Source: Escherichia coli (GTDB lineage Bacteria; Pseudomonadota; Gammaproteobacteria; Enterobacterales; Enterobacteriaceae). From it: DNA of 64,000 nucleotides. The stretch is from the NCBI RefSeq assembly GCF_003334405.1, contig NZ_QOWM01000001.1. One strand, 5' to 3'. Below are positions 11,692 to 41,905 of this stretch, one piece after another. Within the stretch, counting starts at the first letter, position 1. Every line of letters begins with the position of its first letter. Below the pieces are notes generated by a model that worked only from the letters and a program-made list of their open reading frames with translations, did not search any database and had not been told where the DNA came from. The position numbers and the translations under genes are program-made.

Positions 11692-12785
11692 TAACGTCCC
11701 TCAAAATCAATACGCGGATCAACCAGCGTATAGCTGATATCACTGACAATATTCAGCAGCAGGCCAATCAGGGTGAAAATATACAAGGTACCAAACATTA
11801 CAGGATAATCGCGCGAGACGGTCGCTTCGTAGCCCAGTAAGCCCAGACCATTGAGTGAAAACATCACCTCAATCAGCAGCGAGCCGGTAAAAAACATGCT
11901 GATAAACGTCGCCGGAAAACCGGCAATCACCAGCAGCATGGCGTTGCGGAACACATGTTTCCAGAGAATATTTTTTTCACTTACCCCTTTCGCACGCGCG
12001 GTCACCACGTATTGCTTGCGCACTTCATCAAGGAATGAGTTTTTTGTCAGCATGGTCAGCGCCGCAAAGCCACCAATCACTGTCGCCAGCACCGGCAGCG
12101 TGATATGCCACAGATAATCGGTGATTTTCTGATACCACGGCAGCGAATCAAAGTTAGCGGAAACCAGGCCGCGTAGAGGGAACAGGTCGAAATAGCTGCC
12201 GCCCGCGAAGAAGACAATCAGCAGGATGGCAAACAAAAAGGCCGGAATGGCGTAGCCGATGATGATAAATGCGCTACTCCAGACGTCAAAGCGGCTCCCA
12301 TTATAAACAGCTTTGCGAATGCCTAACGGAATCGACACCAGATAGATAATCAGCGTGCTCCACAATCCGAGGGTGATGGAAACCGGCAGACTGTCTTTAA
12401 TCAGCGTCAGCACCGAGGCGCTGCGAAACAGGCTATCGCCAAAATCAAAGCGGATGTAGTCCCAGAGCATTTTGAAGTAACGTTCGTGGATCGGCTTATC
12501 AAAACCGTAGCGATGAGTGATCTCAGCGATCACTTCTGGATCTAATCCGCGTCCGCCACGGTAATTACTGTCGCTGATATTGCCGACACCCGTTTGCGCA
12601 TGGCTGGCACGAACACCTTCACCGCCTGCGCCGGGTAATACTCCGGCATTACCAAACTCAATGGCGGCGATGGCCTGGTCGACCGGACCGCCAGGCGCAA
12701 TTTGCACGATGAAAAAGTTGATGGTGATAATCGCCCATAATGTTGGGATCACCAGCAACAGACGGCGAATCAGGTAAGCGCCCAT
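11691..12785 (-). CDS. yejB: ABC transporter permease YejB
   Basis: 364-aa membrane protein; 1-nt overlap with yejE. Confidence 0.92.
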
Positions 12786-25553: not shown

Positions 25554-27245
25554 ATGAAAACGCTGCTGATTATTGACGCTAATCTCGGTCAGGCACGCGC
25601 CTATATGGCGAAGACCCTGCTGGGCGCGGCGGCGCGAAAAGCAAAACTGGAAATCATCGACAATCCGAACGACGCTGAAATGGCGATTGTTCTCGGTGAT
25701 TCCATCCCGAACGACAGCGCGCTGAACGGTAAAAATGTCTGGCTGGGCGATATTTCCCGGGCAGTTGCGCACCCTGAGCTGTTCCTGAGTGAAGCCAAAG
25801 GCCATGCGAAACCTTACACTGCGCCGGTCGCTGCGACAGCACCAGTTGCCGCCAGCGGTCCGAAACGCGTAGTTGCGGTGACTGCTTGCCCGACTGGCGT
25901 AGCACACACCTTTATGGCGGCTGAAGCCATTGAAACCGAAGCGAAAAAACGTGGCTGGTGGGTGAAAGTTGAAACCCGTGGTTCTGTTGGCGCGGGTAAT
26001 GCAATCACTCCCGAAGAAGTCGCAGCAGCGGATCTGGTGATTGTGGCGGCAGATATCGAAGTGGATCTGGCGAAATTTGCTGGTAAACCGATGTATCGTA
26101 CCTCTACCGGTCTGGCGCTGAAGAAAACCGCGCAGGAACTGGATAAAGCGGTTGCTGAAGCAACGCCGTATGAACCGGCGGGCAAAGCTCAAACGGCGAC
26201 CACTGAAAGTAAGAAAGAGAGTGCAGGCGCATACCGTCACTTGCTGACGGGCGTTTCTTACATGCTGCCGATGGTCGTTGCAGGTGGTCTGTGTATCGCG
26301 CTTTCTTTTGCTTTTGGTATCGAAGCGTTTAAAGAGCCGGGTACGTTGGCTGCGGCGCTGATGCAGATTGGTGGTGGTTCAGCCTTTGCGCTGATGGTGC
26401 CGGTACTGGCAGGTTATATTGCCTTTTCCATTGCCGATCGTCCGGGCCTCACTCCGGGTCTGATTGGCGGTATGCTGGCGGTCAGCACCGGTTCTGGCTT
26501 CATTGGTGGTATTATTGCGGGCTTCCTGGCTGGTTACATTGCGAAGTTAATCAGTACGCAATTGAAACTGCCACAGAGTATGGAGGCGCTGAAACCGATC
26601 CTGATCATTCCGCTAATTTCCAGTCTGGTGGTCGGTCTGGCGATGATCTACCTGATCGGTAAACCAGTTGCTGGCATTCTCGAAGGGCTGACTCACTGGC
26701 TGCAGACCATGGGGACTGCGAATGCGGTTCTGCTGGGGGCGATCCTCGGTGGCATGATGTGTACTGACATGGGCGGTCCGGTAAACAAAGCAGCGTACGC
26801 ATTCGGTGTGGGTCTGCTGAGTACTCAAACCTATGGCCCGATGGCGGCGATTATGGCGGCAGGTATGGTGCCACCGCTGGCAATGGGTCTGGCAACAATG
26901 GTGGCGCGTCGCAAATTCGACAAAGCGCAGCAGGAAGGTGGCAAAGCCGCTCTGGTATTGGGACTGTGCTTCATTTCGGAAGGTGCAATTCCGTTTGCTG
27001 CTCGTGATCCGATGCGTGTGCTGCCGTGCTGTATCGTGGGTGGGGCGCTGACTGGCGCAATCTCAATGGCGATTGGTGCGAAACTGATGGCACCGCACGG
27101 TGGTCTGTTTGTTCTGCTGATCCCTGGCGCTATTACGCCGGTATTGGGTTACCTGGTAGCAATTATTGCCGGTACGCTGGTGGCGGGTTTGGCCTATGCC
27201 TTCCTGAAACGTCCGGAAGTGGACGCAGTAGCGAAAGCAGCGTAA
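25554..27245 (+). CDS. fruA: PTS fructose-specific EIIB'BC component
   Basis: 563-aa ORF with IIB domains and a C-terminal membrane IIC domain. Confidence 0.95.
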   Translation: MKTLLIIDANLGQARAYMAKTLLGAAARKAKLEIIDNPNDAEMAIVLGDSIPNDSALNGKNVWLGDISRAVAHPELFLSEAKGHAKPYTAPVAATAPVAASGPKRVVAVTACPTGVAHTFMAAEAIETEAKKRGWWVKVETRGSVGAGNAITPEEVAAADLVIVAADIEVDLAKFAGKPMYRTSTGLALKKTAQELDKAVAEATPYEPAGKAQTATTESKKESAGAYRHLLTGVSYMLPMVVAGGLCIALSFAFGIEAFKEPGTLAAALMQIGGGSAFALMVPVLAGYIAFSIADRPGLTPGLIGGMLAVSTGSGFIGGIIAGFLAGYIAKLISTQLKLPQSMEALKPILIIPLISSLVVGLAMIYLIGKPVAGILEGLTHWLQTMGTANAVLLGAILGGMMCTDMGGPVNKAAYAFGVGLLSTQTYGPMAAIMAAGMVPPLAMGLATMVARRKFDKAQQEGGKAALVLGLCFISEGAIPFAARDPMRVLPCCIVGGALTGAISMAIGAKLMAPHGGLFVLLIPGAITPVLGYLVAIIAGTLVAGLAYAFLKRPEVDAVAKAA

Positions 27246-27402
27246 TAAAAGGTGTGTTACAGGGCAGAAATTTCCTGTCCTGTAACATTTGATGAGCGCA
27301 AAGAGAATGACCGGTTTGTGAATGTAATTTTATGAATTTAAATGGTTTTATCTTTCAGTAGAAACTTCAAACGTTCATCAAACACTCAGGTTATTTCCTC
27401 AA

Positions 27403-27429
27403 GGGCAGATTATTTTCTGCCCTTTTTTA
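27403..27429 (+). terminator. Rho-independent terminator downstream of fruBKA
   Basis: Stem gggcaga / tctgccc followed by tttttt. Confidence 0.7.
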
Positions 27430-27667
27430 TTGTTCTGTTCTGTGCATCCCGTCACAAATTCCTCGCTTTTGTAATTCAGGCATTTAATCGCATTTTGTGA
27501 GCCTGCTCAAATCTGCCCATTTTGCCTCTCTGGCGGTAATTTACTTTACGTAAAACATGCATACTATGAGCACATGTTTAAATATGAACACATGTTTAAA
27601 CCGTCTTTGCAGTATCTATATTCTTGTGGATTGACAGGGTTGGTAATTTTTTACCAGAGGACGTGCT

Positions 27668-28609
27668 ATGCGCGAAAAGGATTATGTCGTAATTATAGGT
27701 TCGGCGAATATTGATGTCGCCGGATATTCACATGAATCATTAAATTATGCGGATTCAAATCCAGGTAAAATAAAATTTACGCCTGGTGGAGTAGGGCGCA
27801 ATATTGCACAAAACCTGGCGTTGCTGGGTAACAAAGCCTGGCTACTGAGCGCCGTAGGCAGTGATTTTTATGGTCAATCGCTGCTAACGCAAACCAATCA
27901 ATCTGGCGTTTATGTCGATAAATGCCTGATTGTGCCGGGAGAAAATACGTCGAGTTATTTATCATTACTCGATAATACCGGTGAAATGCTGGTTGCTATA
28001 AATGACATGAATATTAGCAACGCTATTACAGCTGAATATCTCGCACAGCACGGTGAATTTATTCAGAGGGCAAAGGTCATTGTCGCGGACTGTAATATCA
28101 GTGAAGAGGCACTGGCATGGATTCTGGATAATGCCGCCAACGTACCCGTATTTGTCGATCCGGTTTCGGCATGGAAATGTGTCAAAGTGCGCGACCGTCT
28201 AAATCAGATCCACACTCTCAAGCCAAACCGCCTTGAAGCGGAAACCCTGAGTGGGATTGCGCTGTCAGGGCGTGAAGATGTGGCAAAAGTTGCTGCCTGG
28301 TTCCATCAACATGGCCTGAACCGACTGGTATTGAGCATGGGCGGCGACGGCGTTTATTACAGCGATATCAGCGGTGAAAGTGGCTGGTCTGCGCCGATCA
28401 AAACCAATGTTATTAATGTTACCGGAGCGGGCGATGCCATGATGGCGGGACTTGCTTCGTGTTGGGTAGACGGAATGCCGTTTGCCGAATCTGTTCGTTT
28501 CGCACAGGGATGTTCGTCAATGGCGCTCTCCTGTGAATACACCAATAACCCCGATTTATCGATTGCCAACGTTATATCGTTAGTGGAGAACGCAGAATGT
28601 CTGAATTAA
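27668..28609 (+). CDS. psuK: Pseudouridine kinase (PfkB family)
   Basis: 313-aa ORF with GG dipeptide and GAGD motifs. Confidence 0.92.
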   Translation: MREKDYVVIIGSANIDVAGYSHESLNYADSNPGKIKFTPGGVGRNIAQNLALLGNKAWLLSAVGSDFYGQSLLTQTNQSGVYVDKCLIVPGENTSSYLSLLDNTGEMLVAINDMNISNAITAEYLAQHGEFIQRAKVIVADCNISEEALAWILDNAANVPVFVDPVSAWKCVKVRDRLNQIHTLKPNRLEAETLSGIALSGREDVAKVAAWFHQHGLNRLVLSMGGDGVYYSDISGESGWSAPIKTNVINVTGAGDAMMAGLASCWVDGMPFAESVRFAQGCSSMALSCEYTNNPDLSIANVISLVENAECLN

Positions 28610-29535
28610 AAATTTCCCCTGAATTATTACAAATTTCCCCGGAAGTGCAGGACGCTTTAAAAAACAAAAAACCGGTTGTGGCGCTGGAATCGACCATTAT
28701 TTCTCACGGGATGCCGTTCCCACAAAATGCCCAGACCGCAATTGAAGTTGAAGAAACTATTCGTAAACAGGGCGCTGTACCTGCCACGATCGCCATTATT
28801 GGCGGCGTGATGAAAGTGGGGTTAAGCAAAGAAGAAATTGAATTACTGGGTCGTGAAGGGCATAACGTGACCAAAGTTAGTCGTCGCGATTTACCTTTTG
28901 TTGTTGCCGCCGGAAAAAATGGCGCAACCACTGTGGCTTCAACGATGATTATTGCGGCGCTTGCCGGAATTAAAGTATTTGCCACCGGGGGAATTGGTGG
29001 TGTGCATCGCGGGGCGGAACATACCTTCGATATTTCTGCCGATTTGCAAGAACTGGCAAATACTAATGTCACCGTTGTTTGTGCCGGGGCGAAATCTATT
29101 CTCGATTTAGGATTAACCACTGAGTATTTAGAAACCTTCGGTGTGCCGTTAATTGGCTATCAGACTAAAGCGCTGCCTGCGTTTTTCTGCCGCACCAGCC
29201 CGTTTGACGTCAGCATTCGTCTCGACAGCGCCAGCGAAATTGCCCGTGCAATGGCGGTGAAATGGCAAAGCGGTCTGAACGGTGGCCTCGTGGTAGCGAA
29301 CCCGATCCCGGAACAGTTTGCTATGCCGGAACACACTATCAATGCGGCGATCGATCAGGCGGTAGCTGAAGCTGAAGCTCAGGGAGTCATTGGTAAAGAA
29401 AGTACGCCATTCCTGCTGGCGCGCGTTGCTGAACTGACCGGCGGTGACAGCCTGAAATCCAACATCCAGCTGGTGTTCAACAACGCCATTCTGGCGAGCG
29501 AAATTGCCAAAGAATATCAGCGTCTCGCGGGTTAA
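28597..29535 (+). CDS. psuG: Pseudouridine-5'-phosphate glycosidase
   Basis: 312-aa ORF; 13-bp overlap with psuK. Confidence 0.92.
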   Translation: MSELKISPELLQISPEVQDALKNKKPVVALESTIISHGMPFPQNAQTAIEVEETIRKQGAVPATIAIIGGVMKVGLSKEEIELLGREGHNVTKVSRRDLPFVVAAGKNGATTVASTMIIAALAGIKVFATGGIGGVHRGAEHTFDISADLQELANTNVTVVCAGAKSILDLGLTTEYLETFGVPLIGYQTKALPAFFCRTSPFDVSIRLDSASEIARAMAVKWQSGLNGGLVVANPIPEQFAMPEHTINAAIDQAVAEAEAQGVIGKESTPFLLARVAELTGGDSLKSNIQLVFNNAILASEIAKEYQRLAG

Positions 29536-29628
29536 TTTCTGACGGGCAGAAAGCCGTCGCCCGTACTCATCAAGCATACCAAAACCTGGCGCTGACGCCG
29601 GGTTTACCGGCATGAAGGGAAAATCATT

Positions 29629-30879
29629 ATGGATATAATGAGAAGTGTTGTGGGGATGGTGGTGTTACTGGCAATAGCATTTCTGTTGTCAGTGAATAAA
29701 AAGAGCATCAGTTTGCGCACGGTTGGAGCCGCACTGCTGCTGCAAATCGCTATTGGTGGCATCATGCTCTACTTCCCACCGGGAAAATGGGCAGTAGAAC
29801 AGGCGGCATTAGGCGTTCATAAAGTGATGTCTTACAGTGATGCCGGTAGCGCCTTCATTTTTGGTTCGCTGGTTGGGCCGAAAATGGATGTCCTGTTTGA
29901 CGGTGCGGGTTTTATCTTCGCCTTTCGCGTACTTCCGGCGATTATTTTCGTTACTGCGCTCATCAGTCTGCTGTACTACATTGGCGTGATGGGGCTGCTG
30001 ATTCGCATCCTTGGCAGCATTTTCCAGAAAGCCCTCAACATCAGCAAAATCGAATCTTTTGTTGCGGTTACTACTATTTTCCTCGGGCAAAATGAGATCC
30101 CGGCGATCGTTAAACCGTTTATCGATCGCATGAATCGCAACGAGTTGTTTACCGCAATTTGTAGCGGGATGGCGTCCATTGCTGGTTCGATGATGATTGG
30201 TTATGCCGGAATGGGCGTACCAATTGACTACCTGTTAGCGGCATCGCTGATGGCGATCCCTGGCGGGATTTTGTTTGCACGTATTCTTAGCCCGGCAACC
30301 GAGCCTTCGCAGGTCACATTTGAAAATCTGTCGTTCAGCGAAACGCCGCCAAAAAGCTTTATCGAAGCGGCGGCGAGCGGTGCGATGACCGGGCTAAAAA
30401 TCGCCGCTGGTGTGGCGACGGTGGTAATGGCGTTTGTCGCAATTATTGCGCTGATCAACGGCATTATCGGCGGAATTGGCGGCTGGTTTGGTTTCGCCAA
30501 TGCCTCTCTGGAAAGTATTTTTGGCTATGTGCTGGCACCGCTGGCGTGGATCATGGGTGTGGACTGGAGTGATGCCAATCTTGCGGGTAGCCTGATTGGG
30601 CAGAAACTGGCGATTAACGAATTCGTCGCTTACCTGAGTTTCTCCCCATACCTGCAAACGGGCGGCACGCTGGAAGTGAAAACCATTGCGATTATCTCCT
30701 TTGCGCTTTGTGGTTTTGCTAACTTTGGTTCTATCGGTGTTGTCGTTGGCGCATTTTCGGCTATTTCGCCAAAACGCGCGCCGGAAATCGCCCAGCTTGG
30801 TTTACGGGCGCTGGCAGCAGCAACGCTTTCCAACCTGATGAGTGCGACTATTGCCGGGTTCTTTATTGGTCTGGCGTAA
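29629..30879 (+). CDS. psuT: Putative pseudouridine/nucleoside transporter, concentrative nucleoside transporter (CNT) family
   Basis: 416-aa membrane protein; paralogue of nupX at 32819. Confidence 0.92.
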   Translation: MDIMRSVVGMVVLLAIAFLLSVNKKSISLRTVGAALLLQIAIGGIMLYFPPGKWAVEQAALGVHKVMSYSDAGSAFIFGSLVGPKMDVLFDGAGFIFAFRVLPAIIFVTALISLLYYIGVMGLLIRILGSIFQKALNISKIESFVAVTTIFLGQNEIPAIVKPFIDRMNRNELFTAICSGMASIAGSMMIGYAGMGVPIDYLLAASLMAIPGGILFARILSPATEPSQVTFENLSFSETPPKSFIEAAASGAMTGLKIAAGVATVVMAFVAIIALINGIIGGIGGWFGFANASLESIFGYVLAPLAWIMGVDWSDANLAGSLIGQKLAINEFVAYLSFSPYLQTGGTLEVKTIAIISFALCGFANFGSIGVVVGAFSAISPKRAPEIAQLGLRALAAATLSNLMSATIAGFFIGLA

Positions 30880-30889
30880 TGCTCGATTT

Positions 30890-30926
30890 GTAGACCGGAT
30901 AAAACGTATTAAGCGTTGCATCCGGC
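30890..30926. repeat. REP-like palindromic element between convergent psuT and yeiL
   Basis: gtagaccggataaaacgtattaagcgttgcatccggc, with REP-type gccggatg ... ccggtctac arms. Confidence 0.6.
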
Positions 30927-30949
30927 AATCGCGCTATTGAAAATAATTT

Positions 30950-31609
30950 TTACTGCATCATCCCGGAGAATTTATTCTCCGGGTCCATCTCCAGCGCCAG
31001 TCCTGACAACTGCTTTCTGTTTTTAATGAGATACCCTTTCTTGCTTTTAATTAATAAACCGTCGTGAATGAACTGCGCGAGAACATATAAAAGATGTCGA
31101 TAAGAAACGCCTAAATACTCTGCCGCTTGCGTATGCTTTTCGTGATAAAGATCACCTTCCTGCGAGAGTAATATAAATGCTGCCAGGCGATTCACTAACG
31201 GAAATGATTGATTCTGAGTTAAAGAAACAATATTACGATAATTTTTATGACTTAAGGTGACGCAGAGTTTTCGTAAAAATAGCGTGTCGTTTAATAACAG
31301 CGGACGGTAATGTTTCATAGGGAGCGCAAGGCACCAACACTCTTCAATAGCCTGCACCGCACGCGGTTCATGGTCTTTATCGATTAACTCAATCTCGCCA
31401 ATAAAACAGGGGGCGGCAAAGAAATCGATCAGCGACACGCGACCATTAGCTAGCGTGGCGTAAAGCCTGGCGCGGCCTCGCGTCAGGTAAAACAGCCAGG
31501 ACGGCTGTTGCCCTTCCTGCACAATGTAGTCACGCGCTAAAAAATGAAACAGCCGCGTATCGGCTGAAACATCCGTTAAAAAGCAATCCTTAAACGCGGA
31601 TTCACTCAT
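30950..31609 (-). CDS. yeiL: CRP/FNR-family transcriptional regulator YeiL
   Basis: About 219 aa from MSESAFKD; cNMP-binding-like fold with a C-terminal HTH; the ORF track is 13 codons longer. Confidence 0.88.
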
Positions 31610-31777
31610 CAATTGCTGCTTAAGATCATTATTGTGGATTTCTTTCACGATGTTTATCCGCTATGAGATTTCTCATATTTAGCATACGTACGCTGTTGTT
31701 AAGATTCAATCATCGGCCCGGTCGAATTTTCTTTGCTGTAGAAAAAATAACGCAACTGGAAACAGAGGAAATAAACA

Positions 31778-32719
31778 ATGGAAAAGAGAAAAATTATTCT
31801 GGATTGTGATCCGGGTCATGATGATGCTATTGCTATAATGATGGCGGCGAAACATCCGGCAATAGATTTATTAGGCATCACTATTGTAGCGGGTAATCAG
31901 ACGCTTGATAAAACATTAATTAATGGCCTGAATGTTTGCCAGAAACTGGAGATTAATGTTCCGGTTTATGCGGGGATGCCGCAGCCCATTATGCGTCAAC
32001 AAATCGTTGCCGATAATATTCACGGTGAAACCGGACTGGATGGCCCGGTATTCGAGCCGCTGACCCGCCAGGCAGAAAGCACTCATGCGGTGAAATATAT
32101 CATTGATACCCTGATGGCAAGCGATGGCGATATCACTCTGGTGCCGGTTGGTCCGCTTTCAAATATCGCGGTGGCAATGCGTATGCAACCCGCGATCCTG
32201 CCCAAAATCCGTGAAATTGTGCTAATGGGCGGCGCTTACGGTACAGGCAACTTCACGCCATCTGCCGAGTTCAACATCTTTGCCGACCCGGAAGCCGCAC
32301 GCGTAGTGTTCACCTCCGGCGTTCCATTAGTGATGATGGGCCTCGATCTCACCAACCAGACCGTTTGCACCCCGGACGTGATTGCTCGGATGGAAAGGGC
32401 AGGCGGCCCCGCCGGAGAGCTGTTCAGCGACATCATGAACTTCACTCTCAAAACGCAGTTCGAAAACTACGGCCTTGCTGGCGGCCCGGTGCACGACGCC
32501 ACCTGCATCGGTTATCTGATTAACCCTGATGGCATTAAAACCCAGGAGATGTACGTCGAAGTGGACGTCAACAGTGGCCCTTGCTATGGGCGTACCGTCT
32601 GCGACGAGCTGGGCGTTCTTGGCAAGCCCGCCAATACCAAAGTCGGCATCACTATTGATACAGACTGGTTCTGGGGATTAGTCGAAGAGTGCGTGCGCGG
32701 CTACATCAAAACCCATTAA
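31778..32719 (+). CDS. rihB: Pyrimidine-specific ribonucleoside hydrolase
   Basis: 313-aa ORF with the N-terminal DCDPGHDDA nucleoside hydrolase signature. Confidence 0.93.
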
Positions 32720-32818
32720 GTGTTGATAACAAGCCGGGCCGGTATCGCAAGATGCAGGCCTGGCTATTTCTGATGGGCAGAAAGCCGTCGCCCAATATGA
32801 CATGAAGAGATAATCACT

Positions 32819-34138
32819 ATGGATGTCATGAGAAGTGTTCTGGGAATGGTGGTATTGCTGACGATTGCGTTTTTACTGTCAGTAAACAAGAAGAAGATCA
32901 GCCTGCGTACCGTTGGCGCGGCGTTAGTGTTACAGGTCGTGATTGGCGGCATTATGCTTTGGTTACCGCCAGGGCGTTGGGTCGCTGAAAAAGTCGCTTT
33001 TGGCGTGCATAAAGTGATGGCGTACAGCGACGCGGGTAGCGCATTTATCTTCGGTTCTCTGGTCGGACCGAAAATGGATACCTTATTTGATGGTGCAGGA
33101 TTTATCTTTGGTTTCAGGGTGTTACCGGCAATTATCTTCGTCACCGCGCTGGTGAGTATTCTCTACTACATCGGTGTGATGGGGATTTTAATTCGAATTC
33201 TCGGCGGTATCTTCCAGAAAGCATTAAATATCAGCAAGATCGAGTCATTCGTCGCGGTCACCACCATTTTCCTCGGGCAAAACGAAATTCCGGCAATCGT
33301 CAAACCCTTTATCGATCGTCTGAATCGCAATGAATTATTTACAGCGATTTGTAGTGGCATGGCCTCGATTGCTGGTTCGACAATGATTGGTTACGCCGCA
33401 CTGGGCGTGCCTGTGGAATATCTGCTGGCGGCATCATTAATGGCGATCCCTGGCGGGATCTTGTTTGCCCGCCTGTTAAGCCCGGCAACGGAATCTTCGC
33501 AGGTTTCCTTTAATAACCTCTCTTTCACCGAAACACCGCCAAAAAGCATTATTGAAGCCGCTGCGACAGGGGCAATGACCGGGCTGAAAATCGCCGCAGG
33601 TGTGGCAACAGTGGTGATGGCATTTGTTGCAATAATTGCGTTGATTAACGGTATTATCGGCGGCGTTGGTGGCTGGTTTGGTTTTGAACATGCCTCGCTG
33701 GAGTCCATTTTAGGTTACCTGCTGGCTCCACTGGCGTGGGTGATGGGTGTGGACTGGAGTGATGCGAATCTTGCCGGGAGTTTGATTGGACAGAAACTGG
33801 CAATAAATGAATTTGTCGCTTATCTCAATTTCTCACCCTATCTGCAAACGGCTGGCACTCTCGATGCTAAAACTGTGGCGATTATTTCCTTCGCGTTGTG
33901 CGGTTTCGCTAACTTTGGTTCTATCGGGGTGGTGGTGGGGGCGTTTTCTGCGGTTGCGCCACACCGTGCGCCGGAAATCGCCCAGCTTGGTTTACGGGCG
34001 CTGTCGCGGAAACTGTATCCTTCAAGAAAGCTATATACCAGGCCCGCCATAAAACCATCGTCAGCACCAAAACTGTCTACTGTCGTATGCGCTGGCGCGG
34101 TCAGCAAAAATTGTTCTCCATCCTTTTCGCTGCAATAA
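32819..34138 (+). CDS. nupX: CNT-family nucleoside transporter NupX with an aberrant 3' end (last ~21 expected codons replaced by 44 unrelated codons); possibly a pseudogene
   Basis: Colinear with paralogue PsuT to residue 395 (...PEIAQLGLRAL), then diverges; the 3' extension is antisense to yeiI coding sequence. Confidence 0.8.
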   Translation: MDVMRSVLGMVVLLTIAFLLSVNKKKISLRTVGAALVLQVVIGGIMLWLPPGRWVAEKVAFGVHKVMAYSDAGSAFIFGSLVGPKMDTLFDGAGFIFGFRVLPAIIFVTALVSILYYIGVMGILIRILGGIFQKALNISKIESFVAVTTIFLGQNEIPAIVKPFIDRLNRNELFTAICSGMASIAGSTMIGYAALGVPVEYLLAASLMAIPGGILFARLLSPATESSQVSFNNLSFTETPPKSIIEAAATGAMTGLKIAAGVATVVMAFVAIIALINGIIGGVGGWFGFEHASLESILGYLLAPLAWVMGVDWSDANLAGSLIGQKLAINEFVAYLNFSPYLQTAGTLDAKTVAIISFALCGFANFGSIGVVVGAFSAVAPHRAPEIAQLGLRALSRKLYPSRKLYTRPAIKPSSAPKLSTVVCAGAVSKNCSPSFSLQ

Positions 34139-34983
34139 ACTGACTCATCGGGCAAATAAACAAACAGTTGCTGAACACCTTGCTGATGCAATGCATTCAC
34201 TGCGGTATTACGGTCAGCATCGCTGGTGATCGCCTGTCCCCATAAAATTTCCAGCTCCGGTAAAGTGGGTTTCAGGGTGTGAATATGCGCCAGCCAGTGT
34301 TTGATTTTGCCCGCTTTGAATTCTGAAACGGTATCGACAAACACCGGGATTTCATCAGCGAGGGTAAAGACCCATTCCAGCGCCTCGGCTGTCAGGTTGC
34401 AATCAGCCAGTACCACGCCCGCATGACGAAGTAAATCGCGCGACCCGTTCAGTAGTTGCGGTGTCAACTGTTCCAGCAGATGGGTATCGTTAATCGCCAG
34501 CACGGTTTGATCGTCTCGATTGGCAATTGCCAGATACGTCGATGTGCTTTGACCATGCAAACGAACGCAGCCGGAGACATTCACGCCGGCACGGCGCGTT
34601 TCTTCCAGGAGCATTTCGCCATAAAAGTCATCGCCAATCACTGAAAGCAAATGGACGTCACGGCCTAACAGCGCCAGATTGTGGGCGATGTTGCGTCCCA
34701 CGCCGCCCGCTGAGCAATGAATTGTACCGGGATGAGAAGCCGATTGCGGGTAACGGATATCCGCCATCCCGCGAATATCCATATTGATTGTCCCCACCAC
34801 TACGCAGTATTCCTGCTCGGTGAGAATGTAACCTTTGCCTTTAATCCGGCCTTTGCGCATTAAATCCATAATATGCGCCGCAACGCGCGAACGGCTGATT
34901 TGCAGCATGTCCGCAATTTCGTTCTGCTGAATCAGCGGGTTACGCCGTAAAATTGCAAGGATCTCCTTTTCCCGGTTATTCAT
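33838..34983 (-). CDS. yeiI: HTH plus PfkB-family sugar kinase YeiI with an aberrant 3' end; possibly a pseudogene
   Basis: N-terminal HTH and PfkB kinase core up to ...FGADDGFMAGLVYSFLEGYSFRDSA; the final ~52 codons are antisense to nupX and lack the conserved PfkB C-terminal segment. Confidence 0.8.
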   Translation of the reverse strand: MNNREKEILAILRRNPLIQQNEIADMLQISRSRVAAHIMDLMRKGRIKGKGYILTEQEYCVVVGTINMDIRGMADIRYPQSASHPGTIHCSAGGVGRNIAHNLALLGRDVHLLSVIGDDFYGEMLLEETRRAGVNVSGCVRLHGQSTSTYLAIANRDDQTVLAINDTHLLEQLTPQLLNGSRDLLRHAGVVLADCNLTAEALEWVFTLADEIPVFVDTVSEFKAGKIKHWLAHIHTLKPTLPELEILWGQAITSDADRNTAVNALHQQGVQQLFVYLPDESVYCSEKDGEQFLLTAPAHTTVDSFGADDGFMAGLVYSFLEGYSFRDSARKPSWAISGARCGATAENAPTTTPIEPKLAKPHNAKEIIATVLASRVPAVCR

Positions 34984-34985
34984 CT

Positions 34986-35843
34986 TCAGGCTACCGCTTT
35001 TTCAGTTTGTTGCGCTTTCAGCCAGGCGATCTCTTCTGCCCAGATATCCGGGTTGATGGTTTCGAGGATCAGCGGAATGCCGTCGAAACGGTCGTCCTGC
35101 ATGATCCAGCGGAACGCATCATGACCGATATTGCCTTCACCGAGGCTATGATGGCGGTCAACGCGGCTGCCAAAGGTGCTTTTCGCATCGTTAAGGTGCA
35201 TCCCGCGCAGATACTTAAAGCCGACAGTACGGGCAAAATGCGCGAATGTTTTCTCGCATTCGGCTGGAGTACGCAAATCATACCCGGCAGCGAAAGCATG
35301 GCAGGTATCAATGCAGACGCCGACGCGGGATTTATCTTCCACGCCGTCGATAATCGCCGCGAGATGTTCGAATTTAAACCCTAAGTTACTGCCCTGACCG
35401 GCGGTGTTTTCTATCACCGCTGTCACACCTTGAGTTTTATCCAGCGCAATGTTGATGGATTCGGCAATACGCGCAAGGCAATCCTCTTCTGAAATCTGCA
35501 TCAGATGGCTGCCAGGGTGGAAGTTGAGCAAAGAAAGCCCCAGCTGTTCGCAACGCTGCATTTCATCTATAAAGGCATCGCGCGATTTTTCCAGAGCTTC
35601 AGTGACCGGATGTCCGAGGTTAATCAGATAACTGTCGTGGGGAAGAATTTGCGCCGATGTGTAGTGATATTTTTCACAGGCGGCTTTGAATTCATCGATG
35701 GTTTGCGTCGTGAGCGGTGCGGCACGCCACTGACGTTGGTTTTTGGTGAACAAGGCAAACGCGGTTGCGTCGATTTCGGCGGCGCGAATTGCGGCATTTG
35801 CCAGACCGCCAGCAGCACTAACGTGCGCTCCAATGTATTTCAT
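34986..35843 (-). CDS. nfo: Endonuclease IV (AP endonuclease)
   Basis: 285-aa ORF; xylose isomerase-like TIM-barrel AP endonuclease. Confidence 0.95.
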
Positions 35844-35916
35844 GCGAGGACTCCTGTTAAACCCGCTGGAGGAAAACGGTAATGATAGCGGGTTAACAGG
35901 AGCAAGATGTAGTGGT

Positions 35917-36966
35917 TTATGCGATGACGCTTTGAATCACATAGTTAATCGCACCACCACCAACAATCAGCCAGGCAAACAGTACCAGTGCCATCAGCAG
36001 AGGTTTCGCCCCAGCTTTTTTCAGCGCGCTGACGTGAGTGGTCAGACCCAGCGCCGCCATCGCCATTGCCAGCAGGAAGGTATCCAGCGTTACCAGCATG
36101 TTCACCACGCTCTGCGGTAACAGGTGGAACGAGTTAAAGATGGCAACTACGATGAACAAGATGGCAAACCACGGAATAGTGATTTTGCTTTTCTCGCCGC
36201 TGTTCGCCCCAGACAGCTGTTTAACACGCGCCGCCAGCAGGATGAGGAACGGAGCCAGCATCATCACGCGCAGCATTTTGGAAATAACTGCTGCGTTTTC
36301 CGCATCCGGGCTGATGGCATGACCTGCCGCCACCACCTGCGCCACTTCGTGCACAGTAGAACCAATGTAGATACCGAAAGTTTCCGGACTAAACCATTGA
36401 GACATCAGCGGATATATCGCCGGGTAGAGGAAAATCGCGACGGTCCCGAAGATAACAACGGTTGCAACAGCCACGGTTACTTTACTGGCTTCCGCTTTCA
36501 CTACCGGCTCAGTCGCCAGTACCGCGGCAGCACCACAGATACTGCTACCGGCACCGATCAACCAGCTGGTGTGCTTATCCAGACCAAACACTTTCTGCCC
36601 CAGGAAGCAAGCCAGCAGGAAGGTACTGGACAGCGTCAACACGTCAATGATGATCCCACTGATACCGACATCGGCAATTTGCGAGAACGTCAGACGGAAG
36701 CCATAAAGAATGATACCCAGACGTAATAAATATTGCTTGGCAAACAGCACACCACCGTCACAGCTTTTCCAGATGTGCGGATAGATGGTGTTGCCTAAAA
36801 CCATCCCCAACAAGATTGCGAGGGTGAGGGCACTAAACCCGGCACCCGCAACCGCGGGAATGGAACCACCCCACAGGGCGACCCCGGTGATAACTGCACT
36901 CAGGGCTAACCCCGGAATAAAATGCCACAGTGTACGATGTTGTTTCTGTAAGGTGATATTCGTCAT
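35917..36966 (-). CDS. yeiH: UPF0324 inner membrane protein YeiH
   Basis: 349-aa polytopic membrane ORF; divergent from yeiE. Confidence 0.9.
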
Positions 36967-37064
36967 AACCCTCTCCTTTAACCGGGCATAAGGTTACGAC
37001 TAACTGGTTTAAAAATAAAATTGATTATATATTTATAATTAATCTTTATAAGTGGTAAGCGACT

Positions 37065-37946
37065 ATGCACATCACCCTCCGGCAGTTGGAAGTTTTTGCA
37101 GAAGTATTGAAAAGTGGATCAACCACCCAGGCGTCGGTGATGCTGGCGTTGTCGCAATCAGCAGTGAGCGCAGCCTTGACCGACCTGGAAGGGCAGCTTG
37201 GCGTGCAACTGTTTGATCGCGTGGGGAAAAGACTGGTTGTTAATGAACACGGGCGGCTGCTCTATCCGCGTGCGTTGGCATTGCTTGAACAGGCGGTTGA
37301 AATCGAACAACTGTTTCGCGAAGACAACGGCGCGATTCGTATCTATGCCAGTAGTACCATCGGTAACTACATTCTGCCTGCAGTTATCGCCCGTTATCGC
37401 CATGATTATCCGCAGTTGCCGATTGAACTTAGCGTTGGGAATAGCCAGGACGTGATGCAAGCGGTGCTGGATTTCCGCGTTGATATTGGCTTTATTGAAG
37501 GACCGTGCCACAGCACTGAAATCATTTCTGAACCGTGGCTGGAAGACGAGCTGGTGGTTTTCGCCGCGCCGACTTCGCCGTTGGCCCGTGGTCCGGTCAC
37601 CTTAGAACAGCTGGCCGCTGCGCCGTGGATCCTGCGTGAACGCGGTTCCGGCACGCGGGAGATTGTCGATTATCTGTTGCTGTCACATTTACCGAAGTTT
37701 GAGATGGCGATGGAATTAGGTAACTCCGAGGCAATCAAACATGCGGTGCGTCATGGGTTGGGAATTAGTTGCCTGTCGCGACGTGTGATTGAAGATCAAT
37801 TGCAGGCAGGCACATTAAGTGAAGTTGCGGTCCCTCTGCCGCGCCTGATGCGTACGTTGTGGCGTATACATCATCGGCAAAAACACCTTTCCAACGCGCT
37901 ACGGCGCTTTCTGGACTATTGCGATCCCGCAAATGTGCCGCGTTAA
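37065..37946 (+). CDS. yeiE: LysR-type transcriptional regulator YeiE
   Basis: 293-aa ORF with an N-terminal LysR HTH. Confidence 0.92.
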
Positions 37947-38150
37947 GTTGCTGTACAAGAACATGCTGGTGCTGTGTCGATTTCGTGACGCAGCGCCTTC
38001 AGCATGCATTCGCCAGAAAAGAGATTGGCTGCTTTACTTATAATCCCTGGGCGATCATGAAGGTGTCTTATAACCGTGTATTTCTGCCGGAAGGATTGCC
38101 AATCGTCTGCTACAATCGCGCCTCATTTTTAAGATGGATAGCATTTTTGT

Positions 38151-39620
38151 ATGGTTTCCGAAACTAAAACCACAGAAGCGCCGGGCTTACGCCGTGAATT
38201 AAAGGCGCGTCACCTGACGATGATTGCCATTGGCGGTTCCATCGGTACAGGTCTTTTTGTTGCCTCTGGCGCAACGATTTCTCAGGCAGGTCCGGGCGGG
38301 GCATTGCTCTCGTATATGCTGATTGGCCTGATGGTTTACTTCCTGATGACCAGTCTCGGTGAACTGGCTGCATATATGCCGGTTTCCGGTTCGTTTGCCA
38401 CTTACGGTCAGAACTATGTTGAAGAAGGCTTTGGCTTCGCGCTGGGCTGGAACTACTGGTACAACTGGGCGGTGACTATCGCCGTTGACCTGGTTGCAGC
38501 TCAGCTGGTCATGAGCTGGTGGTTCCCGGATACACCGGGCTGGATCTGGAGTGCGTTGTTCCTCGGCGTTATCTTCCTGCTGAACTACATCTCAGTTCGT
38601 GGCTTTGGTGAAGCGGAATACTGGTTCTCACTGATCAAAGTCACGACAGTTATTGTCTTTATCATCGTTGGCGTGCTGATGATTATCGGTATCTTCAAAG
38701 GCGCGCAGCCTGCGGGCTGGAGCAACTGGACAATCGGCGAAGCGCCGTTTGCTGGTGGTTTTGCGGCGATGATCGGCGTAGCTATGATTGTCGGCTTCTC
38801 TTTCCAGGGAACCGAGCTGATCGGTATTGCTGCAGGCGAGTCCGAAGATCCGGCGAAAAACATTCCACGCGCGGTACGTCAGGTGTTCTGGCGAATCCTG
38901 TTGTTCTATGTGTTCGCGATCCTGATTATCAGCCTGATTATTCCGTACACCGATCCGAGCCTGCTGCGTAACGATGTTAAAGACATCAGCGTTAGTCCGT
39001 TCACCCTGGTGTTCCAGCACGCGGGTCTGCTCTCTGCGGCGGCGGTGATGAACGCAGTTATTCTGACGGCGGTGCTGTCAGCGGGTAACTCCGGTATGTA
39101 TGCGTCTACTCGTATGCTGTACACCCTGGCGTGTGACGGTAAAGCGCCGCGCATTTTCGCTAAACTGTCGCGTGGTGGCGTGCCGCGTAATGCGCTGTAT
39201 GCGACGACGGTGATTGCCGGTCTGTGCTTCCTGACCTCCATGTTTGGCAACCAGACGGTATACCTGTGGCTGCTGAACACCTCCGGGATGACGGGTTTTA
39301 TCGCCTGGCTGGGGATTGCCATTAGCCACTATCGCTTCCGTCGCGGTTACGTATTGCAGGGACACGACATTAACGATCTGCCGTACCGTTCAGGTTTCTT
39401 CCCACTGGGGCCGATCTTCGCATTCATTCTGTGTCTGATTATCACTTTGGGCCAGAACTACGAAGCGTTCCTGAAAGATACTATTGACTGGGGCGGCGTA
39501 GCGGCAACGTATATTGGTATCCCGCTGTTCCTGATTATTTGGTTCGGCTACAAGCTGATTAAAGGAACTCACTTCGTACGCTACAGCGAAATGAAGTTCC
39601 CGCAGAACGATAAGAAATAA
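38151..39620 (+). CDS. lysP: Lysine-specific permease (APC family)
   Basis: 489-aa 12-TM amino acid permease. Confidence 0.95.
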   Translation: MVSETKTTEAPGLRRELKARHLTMIAIGGSIGTGLFVASGATISQAGPGGALLSYMLIGLMVYFLMTSLGELAAYMPVSGSFATYGQNYVEEGFGFALGWNYWYNWAVTIAVDLVAAQLVMSWWFPDTPGWIWSALFLGVIFLLNYISVRGFGEAEYWFSLIKVTTVIVFIIVGVLMIIGIFKGAQPAGWSNWTIGEAPFAGGFAAMIGVAMIVGFSFQGTELIGIAAGESEDPAKNIPRAVRQVFWRILLFYVFAILIISLIIPYTDPSLLRNDVKDISVSPFTLVFQHAGLLSAAAVMNAVILTAVLSAGNSGMYASTRMLYTLACDGKAPRIFAKLSRGGVPRNALYATTVIAGLCFLTSMFGNQTVYLWLLNTSGMTGFIAWLGIAISHYRFRRGYVLQGHDINDLPYRSGFFPLGPIFAFILCLIITLGQNYEAFLKDTIDWGGVAATYIGIPLFLIIWFGYKLIKGTHFVRYSEMKFPQNDKK

Positions 39621-39640
39621 GTTTCCTCCCTTCCTTGCTA

Positions 39641-39668
39641 AGCCCTCTCAACCGAGAGGGCTTTTTCA
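39641..39668 (+). terminator. Rho-independent terminator of lysP
   Basis: Stem agccctctc / gagagggct with loop aacc, followed by ttttt. Confidence 0.85.
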
Positions 39669-39715
39669 ATTCCATTTCCCTGACAAATCATGCGGATATA
39701 AAATTTAACATTTGG

Positions 39716-39744
39716 ATTGATAATTGTTATCGTTTGCATTATCG
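39716..39744. promoter_or_regulatory. Fur box in the cirA promoter region
   Basis: attgataattgttatcgtttgcattatc resembles the Fur consensus gataatgataatcattatc; cirA is iron-regulated. Confidence 0.55.
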
Positions 39745-39913
39745 TTACGCCGCAATCAAAAAAGGCTGACAAATCAGAGGCTGTTCCGGCTTTCTGGGAT
39801 GATCACCTGCATAAAAAATAAGTCCACCGCGATGCTGCCGTACGCAAGGGGACGTGAAGAAGATGTGAGCGATAACCCATTTTATTTTCGTAGTTACCTC
39901 ATGGAGATATGGA

Positions 39914-41905
39914 ATGTTTAGGTTGAACCCTTTCGTACGGGTCGGGCTGTGTTTGTCCGCTATTTCTTGTGCATGGCCTGTGTTAGCGGTCGATGATGAT
40001 GGCGAAACGATGGTTGTCACTGCATCTTCCGTGGAACAAAATCTTAAAGATGCACCTGCCAGTATCAGCGTCATTACCCAGGAAGACCTGCAGCGAAAAC
40101 CGGTACAGAATCTGAAGGATGTCCTCAAAGAAGTGCCTGGCGTACAACTGACGAACGAAGGGGATAACCGTAAGGGCGTTAGTATTCGTGGTCTGGACAG
40201 CAGCTATACCCTGATTCTCGTCGACGGTAAACGCGTGAACTCCCGCAATGCCGTCTTCCGCCACAATGATTTCGATCTGAACTGGATCCCGGTCGATTCC
40301 ATCGAACGTATTGAAGTGGTCCGTGGCCCGATGTCGTCGCTGTACGGTTCCGATGCGCTCGGCGGTGTAGTGAATATCATCACCAAAAAAATCGGTCAGA
40401 AATGGTCGGGTACCGTTACCGTCGATACCACCATTCAGGAACATCGCGATCGCGGTGACACCTATAACGGTCAGTTCTTTACCAGTGGACCATTAATTGA
40501 TGGTGTGCTGGGAATGAAAGCTTACGGCAGCCTGGCAAAACGTGAAAAGGATGACCCGCAAAACTCAACGACCACCGATACCGGAGAAACGCCGCGTATT
40601 GAAGGATTCTCCAGCCGCGACGGCAATGTCGAATTTGCCTGGACACCGAATCAAAATCACGATTTTACTGCCGGATACGGTTTCGACCGTCAGGATCGTG
40701 ATTCCGACTCGCTGGACAAAAACCGCCTGGAACGCCAGAACTACTCCGTCAGCCATAATGGGTGTTGGGATTACGGCACCAGCGAACTGAAATACTACGG
40801 TGAGAAAGTCGAGAACAAAAACCCTGGCAACAGCAGCCCGATAACTTCCGAAAGCAATACGGTCGACGGCAAATACACGTTGCCGCTGACGGCGATTAAT
40901 CAGTTTCTCACGGTTGGCGGTGAATGGCGTCACGACAAACTTAGCGATGCGGTGAACCTGACCGGGGGAACCAGCTCCAAAACGTCTGCCAGCCAGTACG
41001 CGCTGTTTGTGGAAGATGAATGGCGGATCTTCGAGCCGCTGGCGCTGACGACCGGCGTGCGTATGGACGATCACGAAACCTACGGTGAACACTGGAGTCC
41101 GCGTGCCTACCTGGTTTATAACGCCACCGACACCGTAACGGTGAAAGGGGGCTGGGCGACGGCATTTAAAGCACCTTCTCTGTTGCAACTTAGCCCTGAC
41201 TGGACGAGCAATTCCTGCCGTGGCGCATGTAAGATTGTGGGTAGCCCGGATCTGAAACCAGAAACCAGCGAAAGTTGGGAGCTGGGGCTTTACTACATGG
41301 GTGAAGAAGGCTGGCTGGAAGGGGTTGAATCCAGCGTTACCGTTTTCCGTAACGATGTGAAAGATCGTATCAGCATCAGCCGTACGTCTGACGTCAACGC
41401 TGCACCGGGCTACCAAAACTTTGTTGGTTTTGAGACGGGCGCTAACGGACGGCGCATACCGGTATTTAGCTACTACAACGTTAACAAAGCTCGTATTCAG
41501 GGCGTGGAAACCGAACTGAAAATTCCGTTCAACGATGAATGGAAACTGTCGATCAACTACACCTACAACGATGGTCGTGATGTCAGCAACGGCGAAAACA
41601 AACCGCTATCCGATCTGCCGTTCCATACTGCTAACGGTACGCTGGACTGGAAACCGCTGGCGCTGGAAGACTGGTCATTCTATGTTTCTGGGCACTATAC
41701 CGGGCAGAAACGCGCCGACAGCGCGACGGCTAAAACACCGGGCGGTTATACCATCTGGAATACCGGCGCGGCCTGGCAGGTGACTAAAGACGTCAAACTG
41801 CGCGCAGGCGTGCTGAACCTTGGCGACAAGGATCTCAGTCGTGACGACTACAGCTATAACGAAGACGGACGTCGTTACTTTATGGCAGTGGATTATCGCT
41901 TCTGA
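39914..41905 (+). CDS. cirA: TonB-dependent catecholate siderophore / colicin I receptor
   Basis: 663-aa ORF with signal peptide, TonB box, and a barrel ending ...YFMAVDYRF. Confidence 0.95.

Follow-up and report, generated by a model that had tools for sequence, protein, structure and literature searches.

Spontaneous deletions between short direct repeats are a familiar class of mutation in Escherichia coli, ascribed to slipped-strand misalignment and exemplified by the lacI deletions and by deletions that are stimulated by palindromes. Misalignment between short repeats leaves its mark as a perfect direct repeat at the ends of the deletion, one copy of which is kept, and slippage is the classical route by which such deletions come about. 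Here, we describe a natural E. coli locus at which two facing genes, nupX and yeiI, have run into each other. It very probably represents a recent, lineage-specific deletion of 281 bp through misalignment of two copies of the sequence ACGGGCGCTG, with slippage as the most likely process and loss of function of both genes as the most likely outcome.

In the intact loci, as given by the RefSeq annotation, nupX is 1251 bp long and encodes 416 aa, whereas yeiI is 1089 bp long and encodes 362 aa; the genes do not overlap and are set apart by a gap of 106 bp in PK8241 and S1-INA-02-A, or 55 bp in strain D2. The two protein lengths are those which the first-pass annotation of the present sequence had given for K-12. 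NupX has been described as inefficient in the transport of uridine and cytidine (PMC11241209), and the function of YeiI has been stated to be unknown (PMC9061257). A literature search on yeiI and nupX returned no description of the deletion allele.

A 281-bp deletion between two copies of a 10-bp repeat

In the window, i.e., the whole stretch of 64,000 nucleotides that was analyzed, the list of open reading frames places nupX (32819..34138, +, 439 aa) and yeiI (33838..34983, -, 381 aa) in convergent orientation with 301 bp in common (33838..34138; Table 1). Base-by-base comparison established that exactly 281 bp are missing from the window relative to both PK8241 and S1-INA-02-A, the sequence being present in these close relatives and gone here between flanks that are collinear. 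The left arm is that of PK8241 through 34003 and the right arm is that of PK8241 from 33994, with the consequence that the 10 bases ACGGGCGCTG are common to both arms. In S1-INA-02-A, this repeat occurs as two copies placed 281 bp apart (L004 11995-12004 and 12276-12285), one towards the 3' end of nupX and one towards that of the convergent yeiI, and the window has one copy. Both breakpoints lie in this same short direct repeat, with the single retained copy at the junction. The deletion took away residues 396-416 of NupX (21 aa), the whole of the 106-bp spacer and residues 331-362 of YeiI (32 aa). These boundaries and losses are read directly from the alignment, and they sharpen what the first-pass annotation had put forward from the window itself: a mutual antisense overlap of 301 bp, which the reading frames reproduce exactly; a deletion of about 250-300 bp, for which the intact references give a gap of 281 bp; a junction near 34000-34006, which now falls inside the 10-bp microhomology at 33994..34003; and the removal of both 3' ends together with the spacer, which is what the comparison recovers.

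Table 1. Features of the fused nupX-yeiI locus and its neighbors (positions in the window)
Feature	Position	Strand	Basis or remark
Native part of nupX, codons 1-395, CNT-family nucleoside transporter	32819..34003	+	Matches reference nupX
Deletion junction, one kept copy of the 10-bp direct repeat ACGGGCGCTG	33994..34003	.	Arms compared with reference
Foreign tail of chimeric NupX, 44 aa and stop, antisense of yeiI codons	34004..34138	+	Replaces native AAATLSNLMSATIAGFFIGLA
Native part of yeiI, codons 1-330, PfkB-family sugar kinase	33994..34983	-	Identity to reference YeiI
Foreign tail of chimeric YeiI, 51 aa and stop, antisense of nupX codons about 341-392	33838..33993	-	~84% identical to psuT antisense ORF
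nfo (endonuclease IV), 2 bp upstream of yeiI, same strand	34986..35843	-	ORF list, RefSeq annotation of intact locus
rihB (pyrimidine nucleosidase), upstream of nupX, same strand	31778..32719	+	ORF list, RefSeq annotation

The closest complete genome, S1-INA-02-A (NZ_CP145663.1), differs from the window by 18 SNPs over the whole 64 kb and by 7 substitutions over 24 kb, with a flank identity of 99.97%, and, across the 64 kb compared, no large indel other than the 281-bp gap separates them. At window position 33989, 5 bp before the left repeat, S1-INA-02-A has a substitution in nupX that amounts to Gly391Cys relative to the window; since PK8241 carries the base of the window, this change is unrelated to the deletion.

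A junction absent from complete genomes

The fused arrangement is rare. Each of the 5,426 complete E. coli genomes searched was matched by a 1001-bp query across the junction, and every full-length match was split into two pieces spanning 1282 or 1231 bp, meaning that these references hold 281 or 230 extra bases. With a 120-bp query centered on the junction, the best matches in the same set came as two pieces spanning 401 bp. Neither query found a contiguous junction (0/5,426 complete genomes). Had the overlap been a regular feature of the species, a prospect that the first-pass annotation itself had raised, reference genomes ought to share it, and it is absent from every one of the 5,426. A search of JGI metagenome contigs with the exact 40-mer of the junction likewise gave 0 matches.

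The allele is on record among draft assemblies. In a public protein collection, two draft contigs from NCBI (232,701 and 359,949 bp) carry the exact 439-aa chimeric NupX, and positions 26819..40138 of the window are identical over 13,320 bp to positions 82321-95640 of JANJGP010000004.1 (GCA_024592625.1). The two contigs may derive from the same isolate or clone and hence do not necessarily confirm each other independently. The exact 381-aa chimeric YeiI is absent from the 15-billion-protein collection, and its gene caller accounts for this: on the contig bearing the allele, it called the 439-aa nupX and left yeiI uncalled.

As to polarity, the comparison indicates that the short form is derived rather than ancestral, given that every other genome has the long form and that PsuT and the distant structural homologues keep the native segments. 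The converse scenario, an insertion in the other genomes in place of a deletion here, was considered and is ruled out by the native tails in PsuT and in the distant CNT and PfkB homologues.

Conserved C-terminal elements replaced by antisense sequence

Codons 1-395 of nupX (...APEIAQLGLRAL) agree with PK8241 nucleotide for nucleotide and with S1-INA-02-A save for the one difference, G391C. After codon 395, 44 foreign residues (SRKLYPSRKLYTRPAIKPSS...), encoded by the antisense strand of yeiI, stand in place of the native AAATLSNLMSATIAGFFIGLA. This is as it had been described from the resemblance of NupX to its paralogue PsuT, and the alignment with the references likewise puts the change after residue 395; the 21-aa tail of reference NupX is also found at the end of PsuT. 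The exchange altered the character of the C-terminus, the native tail having a GRAVY of +1.50 and no charges and the new one a GRAVY of -0.28, 8 K/R and 5 P. Reference NupX aligns end to end with the transporters CNT_NW (5l26) and vcCNT (3tij), with E about 1e-129, and the lost residues align with VAGSLSNLMSAVIAGLFTGL (conserved LSNLMSAxIAGxFxGL) at the extreme C-terminus of the Neisseria CNT_NW, as well as with the end of vcCNT. In the 5l26 and 3tij structures, the lost segment corresponds to the last transmembrane helix, and residues 396-416 make up most of this conserved element. The 439-aa NupX does not have the complete CNT fold with its last transmembrane helix and LSNLMSA...IAG motif; the remainder of the chimeric protein is an unambiguous CNT homologue.

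On the opposite strand, residues 1-330 of YeiI are identical to the reference, and 51 foreign residues, KPSWAISGARCGATAENAPTTTPIEPKLAKPHNAKEIIATVLASRVPAVCR, follow as the antisense of nupX. Reference YeiI is a PfkB-family kinase with about 54 extra N-terminal residues; its residues 55-359 align with PsuK (7vkp, E 1e-66), and the residues lost in the window, FAVACAAISRASGSLNNPTLSADNALSLVPMV, align with PsuK 278-306. Chimeric YeiI keeps the GAGD-type motif with the catalytic Asp, as FGADDG, which aligns with TGAGDA of PsuK. The C-terminal helices after this motif are gone, residues 331-362 having been replaced by antisense-derived sequence, in keeping with the early remark that YeiI ends shortly after FGADDG and lacks the conserved C-terminal segment. 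In the ribokinase family, the helices following the GAGD motif contribute to the nucleotide pocket and to the monovalent-cation site. The removal of such conserved structural elements, the last transmembrane helix in one protein and the C-terminal helices of the kinase in the other, makes it likely that both products are non-functional, and the 439-aa NupX and the 381-aa YeiI are accordingly judged to be probably inactive.

Of the two things said initially about the new YeiI tail, its descent from the antisense strand of nupX stands (51 aa, codons about 341-392); its supposed sameness with the peptide of an antisense ORF over psuT (30630..30833, -) reduces to an identity of ~84%. Both CNT paralogues have this antisense frame open across from their 3' part (window 30630..30833 and 33838..33993, both -), which looks like a by-product of the codon content that psuT and nupX share. 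As the frame is open opposite both paralogues irrespective of the deletion, a long open tail is to be expected and is no evidence of a coding function. The tails of 44 aa and 51 aa are thus best understood, from the reading frames, as passive antisense read-through to the next stop.

The yeiI gene is also variable in its intact state. It falls into two deeply divergent allele classes with about 80-83% nucleotide identity (L005 4853-6100 versus L004 12129-13374), the neighboring rihB being about 96% identical, a pattern that points to recombination or replacement of the yeiI allele long ago.

The lost spacer contains a BIME

The 106-bp spacer contains two REP-like palindromes in inverted orientation (inverted repeats I2 and I3), which together constitute a BIME. 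They have the typical attributes of such elements: imperfect palindromes of ~35 bp, a core of the GCCGGATAAG / CTTATCAGGCCTAC type, repetition in the genome and arrangement as an inverted pair. The REP core motif has 5 further occurrences in the window against 0.1 expected. Three core matches in alternating orientation at window positions 50004-50133, in the part on the mgl/galS side, are evidently another BIME. The spacer between nupX and yeiI is itself polymorphic, with the 106-bp form and its two inverted REPs (L004 12071-12176) occurring in K-12-like and S1-INA lineages and a 55-bp form with one REP (L002 3571-3625) in D2 and UPEC_U013.

A consensus scan for intrinsic terminators (GC-rich hairpin and T-run) found none in the intact locus and no terminator-like site in window positions 33700..34300. 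The latter result concurs with the first-pass observation that no terminator hairpin lies between the fused genes. The accompanying idea that the deletion had removed a terminator holds for the spacer and not for the terminator, as none was detected even in the intact spacer, where the BIME is found instead. The description "terminator deleted" was therefore dropped in favor of "REP/BIME deleted".

The loss of the REP hairpins along with the tail-to-tail fusion could permit convergent read-through. The 2-bp spacing between nfo and yeiI suggests that they are co-transcribed, and nfo-yeiI transcripts would then run into antisense nupX, just as rihB-nupX transcripts would run into antisense yeiI-nfo.

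Recurrent loss of nupX

Beyond this lineage, about 964 of 5,413 complete E. coli genomes matched the body of nupX solely via its paralogue psuT. In about 18% of complete E. coli genomes, nupX is independently lacking or disrupted, and it has become so by at least three independent routes. In UPEC_U013, an internal deletion of 1,136 bp joined the first 67 bp of nupX to its last 44 bp (L005 4734-4842). In TOK-001 (L008 2289-3750), an IS1-associated deletion has left an IS1B in place of rihB and the 5' half of nupX, the 3' half of which is annotated as a pseudogene. Given that nupX is lost so frequently in nature, relaxed selection is a sufficient explanation.

A probable route by misalignment of the repeats

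We propose that the two 10-bp copies of ACGGGCGCTG, one in nupX and one in yeiI, misaligned, and that RecA-independent replication slippage, as the most likely process, dropped 281 bp and let one copy of the repeat stay. The REP/BIME palindromes and a longer imperfect stem may have folded the intervening DNA and thereby drawn the repeats closer. Each of the truncated reading frames now continues on the antisense strand of the opposite gene up to the next stop, and this continuation yields the 301-bp overlap. When the interval between the repeats was folded as single-stranded DNA, it formed the REP hairpins and an imperfect stem of 16 pairs, with one arm at L004 11996-12012, over the left repeat, and the other at 12234-12250, ending 25 nt short of the right repeat. 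The z of this fold is -2.46, with 3/100 shuffles folding as well, which is a modest signal; it is consistent with hairpin-assisted slippage and does not amount to proof. Slippage and other forms of microhomology-mediated joining look alike in sequence, and we infer the mechanism from a single junction.

Alternative explanations

It might be that the isolate is truly intact and that the assembler lost the 281 bp. The allele is indeed seen in draft assemblies only, and REP elements are repeated in the genome, a circumstance that could favor a collapse. Such a collapse would, however, break or join the sequence at the REPs, and both breakpoints instead fall at a 10-bp repeat within coding sequence that is unique. 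A repeat of this length is shorter than typical assembler k-mers. An artefact also sits poorly with the lack of any other large indel relative to the sibling genome in the remainder of the 64 kb and with the presence of the exact chimeric protein on two contigs of unequal length. We consider an assembly error very unlikely.

A real deletion need not be neutral. Its advantage might have lain in the removal of nucleoside uptake or kinase activity, or in a changed expression of nfo or rihB, brought about by the loss of mRNA-stabilizing REP hairpins and by convergent transcription; the independent loss of nupX many times over (the about 964 genomes, UPEC_U013 and TOK-001) and the position of nfo just upstream of yeiI on the same strand are compatible with this. 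Yet, relaxed selection on a weak transporter, which handles uridine and cytidine inefficiently (PMC11241209), equally predicts recurrent loss, and the junction is restricted to one lineage and absent from the JGI metagenome contigs. It is thus very unlikely, in our estimate, that antisense transcription altering nfo or rihB was selected in this lineage, or that the recurrent loss of pyrimidine-nucleoside uptake by NupX has been adaptive. One could go further and view the overlap itself as functional, with selection maintaining the new C-termini or a pair of genes that regulate each other by antisense, for which the length and openness of both chimeric frames might speak. This we hold to be extremely unlikely: the arrangement occurs in 0/5,426 complete genomes, psuT, too, has this antisense frame open by chance, the tails displace conserved structural elements, and the gene caller gave no chimeric yeiI. 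A recent deletion by misalignment of the short repeats hence remains the preferred reading.

Comparison with known systems

The appropriate annotation of the locus would be as two pseudogenes, in place of the 439-aa transporter and missing yeiI that one gene caller gave. The junction could serve as a lineage-specific marker in strain typing, and the allele further supports the dispensability of nupX in E. coli. Other than for annotation, its import is small: it is a clean natural case of a microhomology-bounded deletion across a BIME.

Set against the intact nupX-BIME-yeiI locus, as found in K-12 and in most E. coli, the genes, their order and their orientation are the same, and what differs is the absence of the 281 bp that encode NupX aa 396-416 and YeiI aa 331-362 and include the 106-bp spacer with its two REPs. 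The UPEC_U013-type and TOK-001 alleles resemble it in what appears to be inactivation of the same dispensable transporter gene; in those, however, the breakpoints and mechanisms are others and yeiI is intact, whereas here both convergent genes are truncated. The closest likeness is to the familiar class of spontaneous short-direct-repeat deletions in E. coli, with which it shares ends in a perfect repeat (here of 10 bp), the retention of one copy and an interval of a few hundred bp containing palindromes capable of forming hairpins; unlike the selected laboratory mutants of E. coli, it is an allele of a natural isolate that came to light through genome comparison. In sum, the nupX-yeiI fusion is an ordinary, probably gene-inactivating deletion in two facing, non-essential genes, and as such a new instance of a well-known type of mutation rather than a new kind of gene arrangement.
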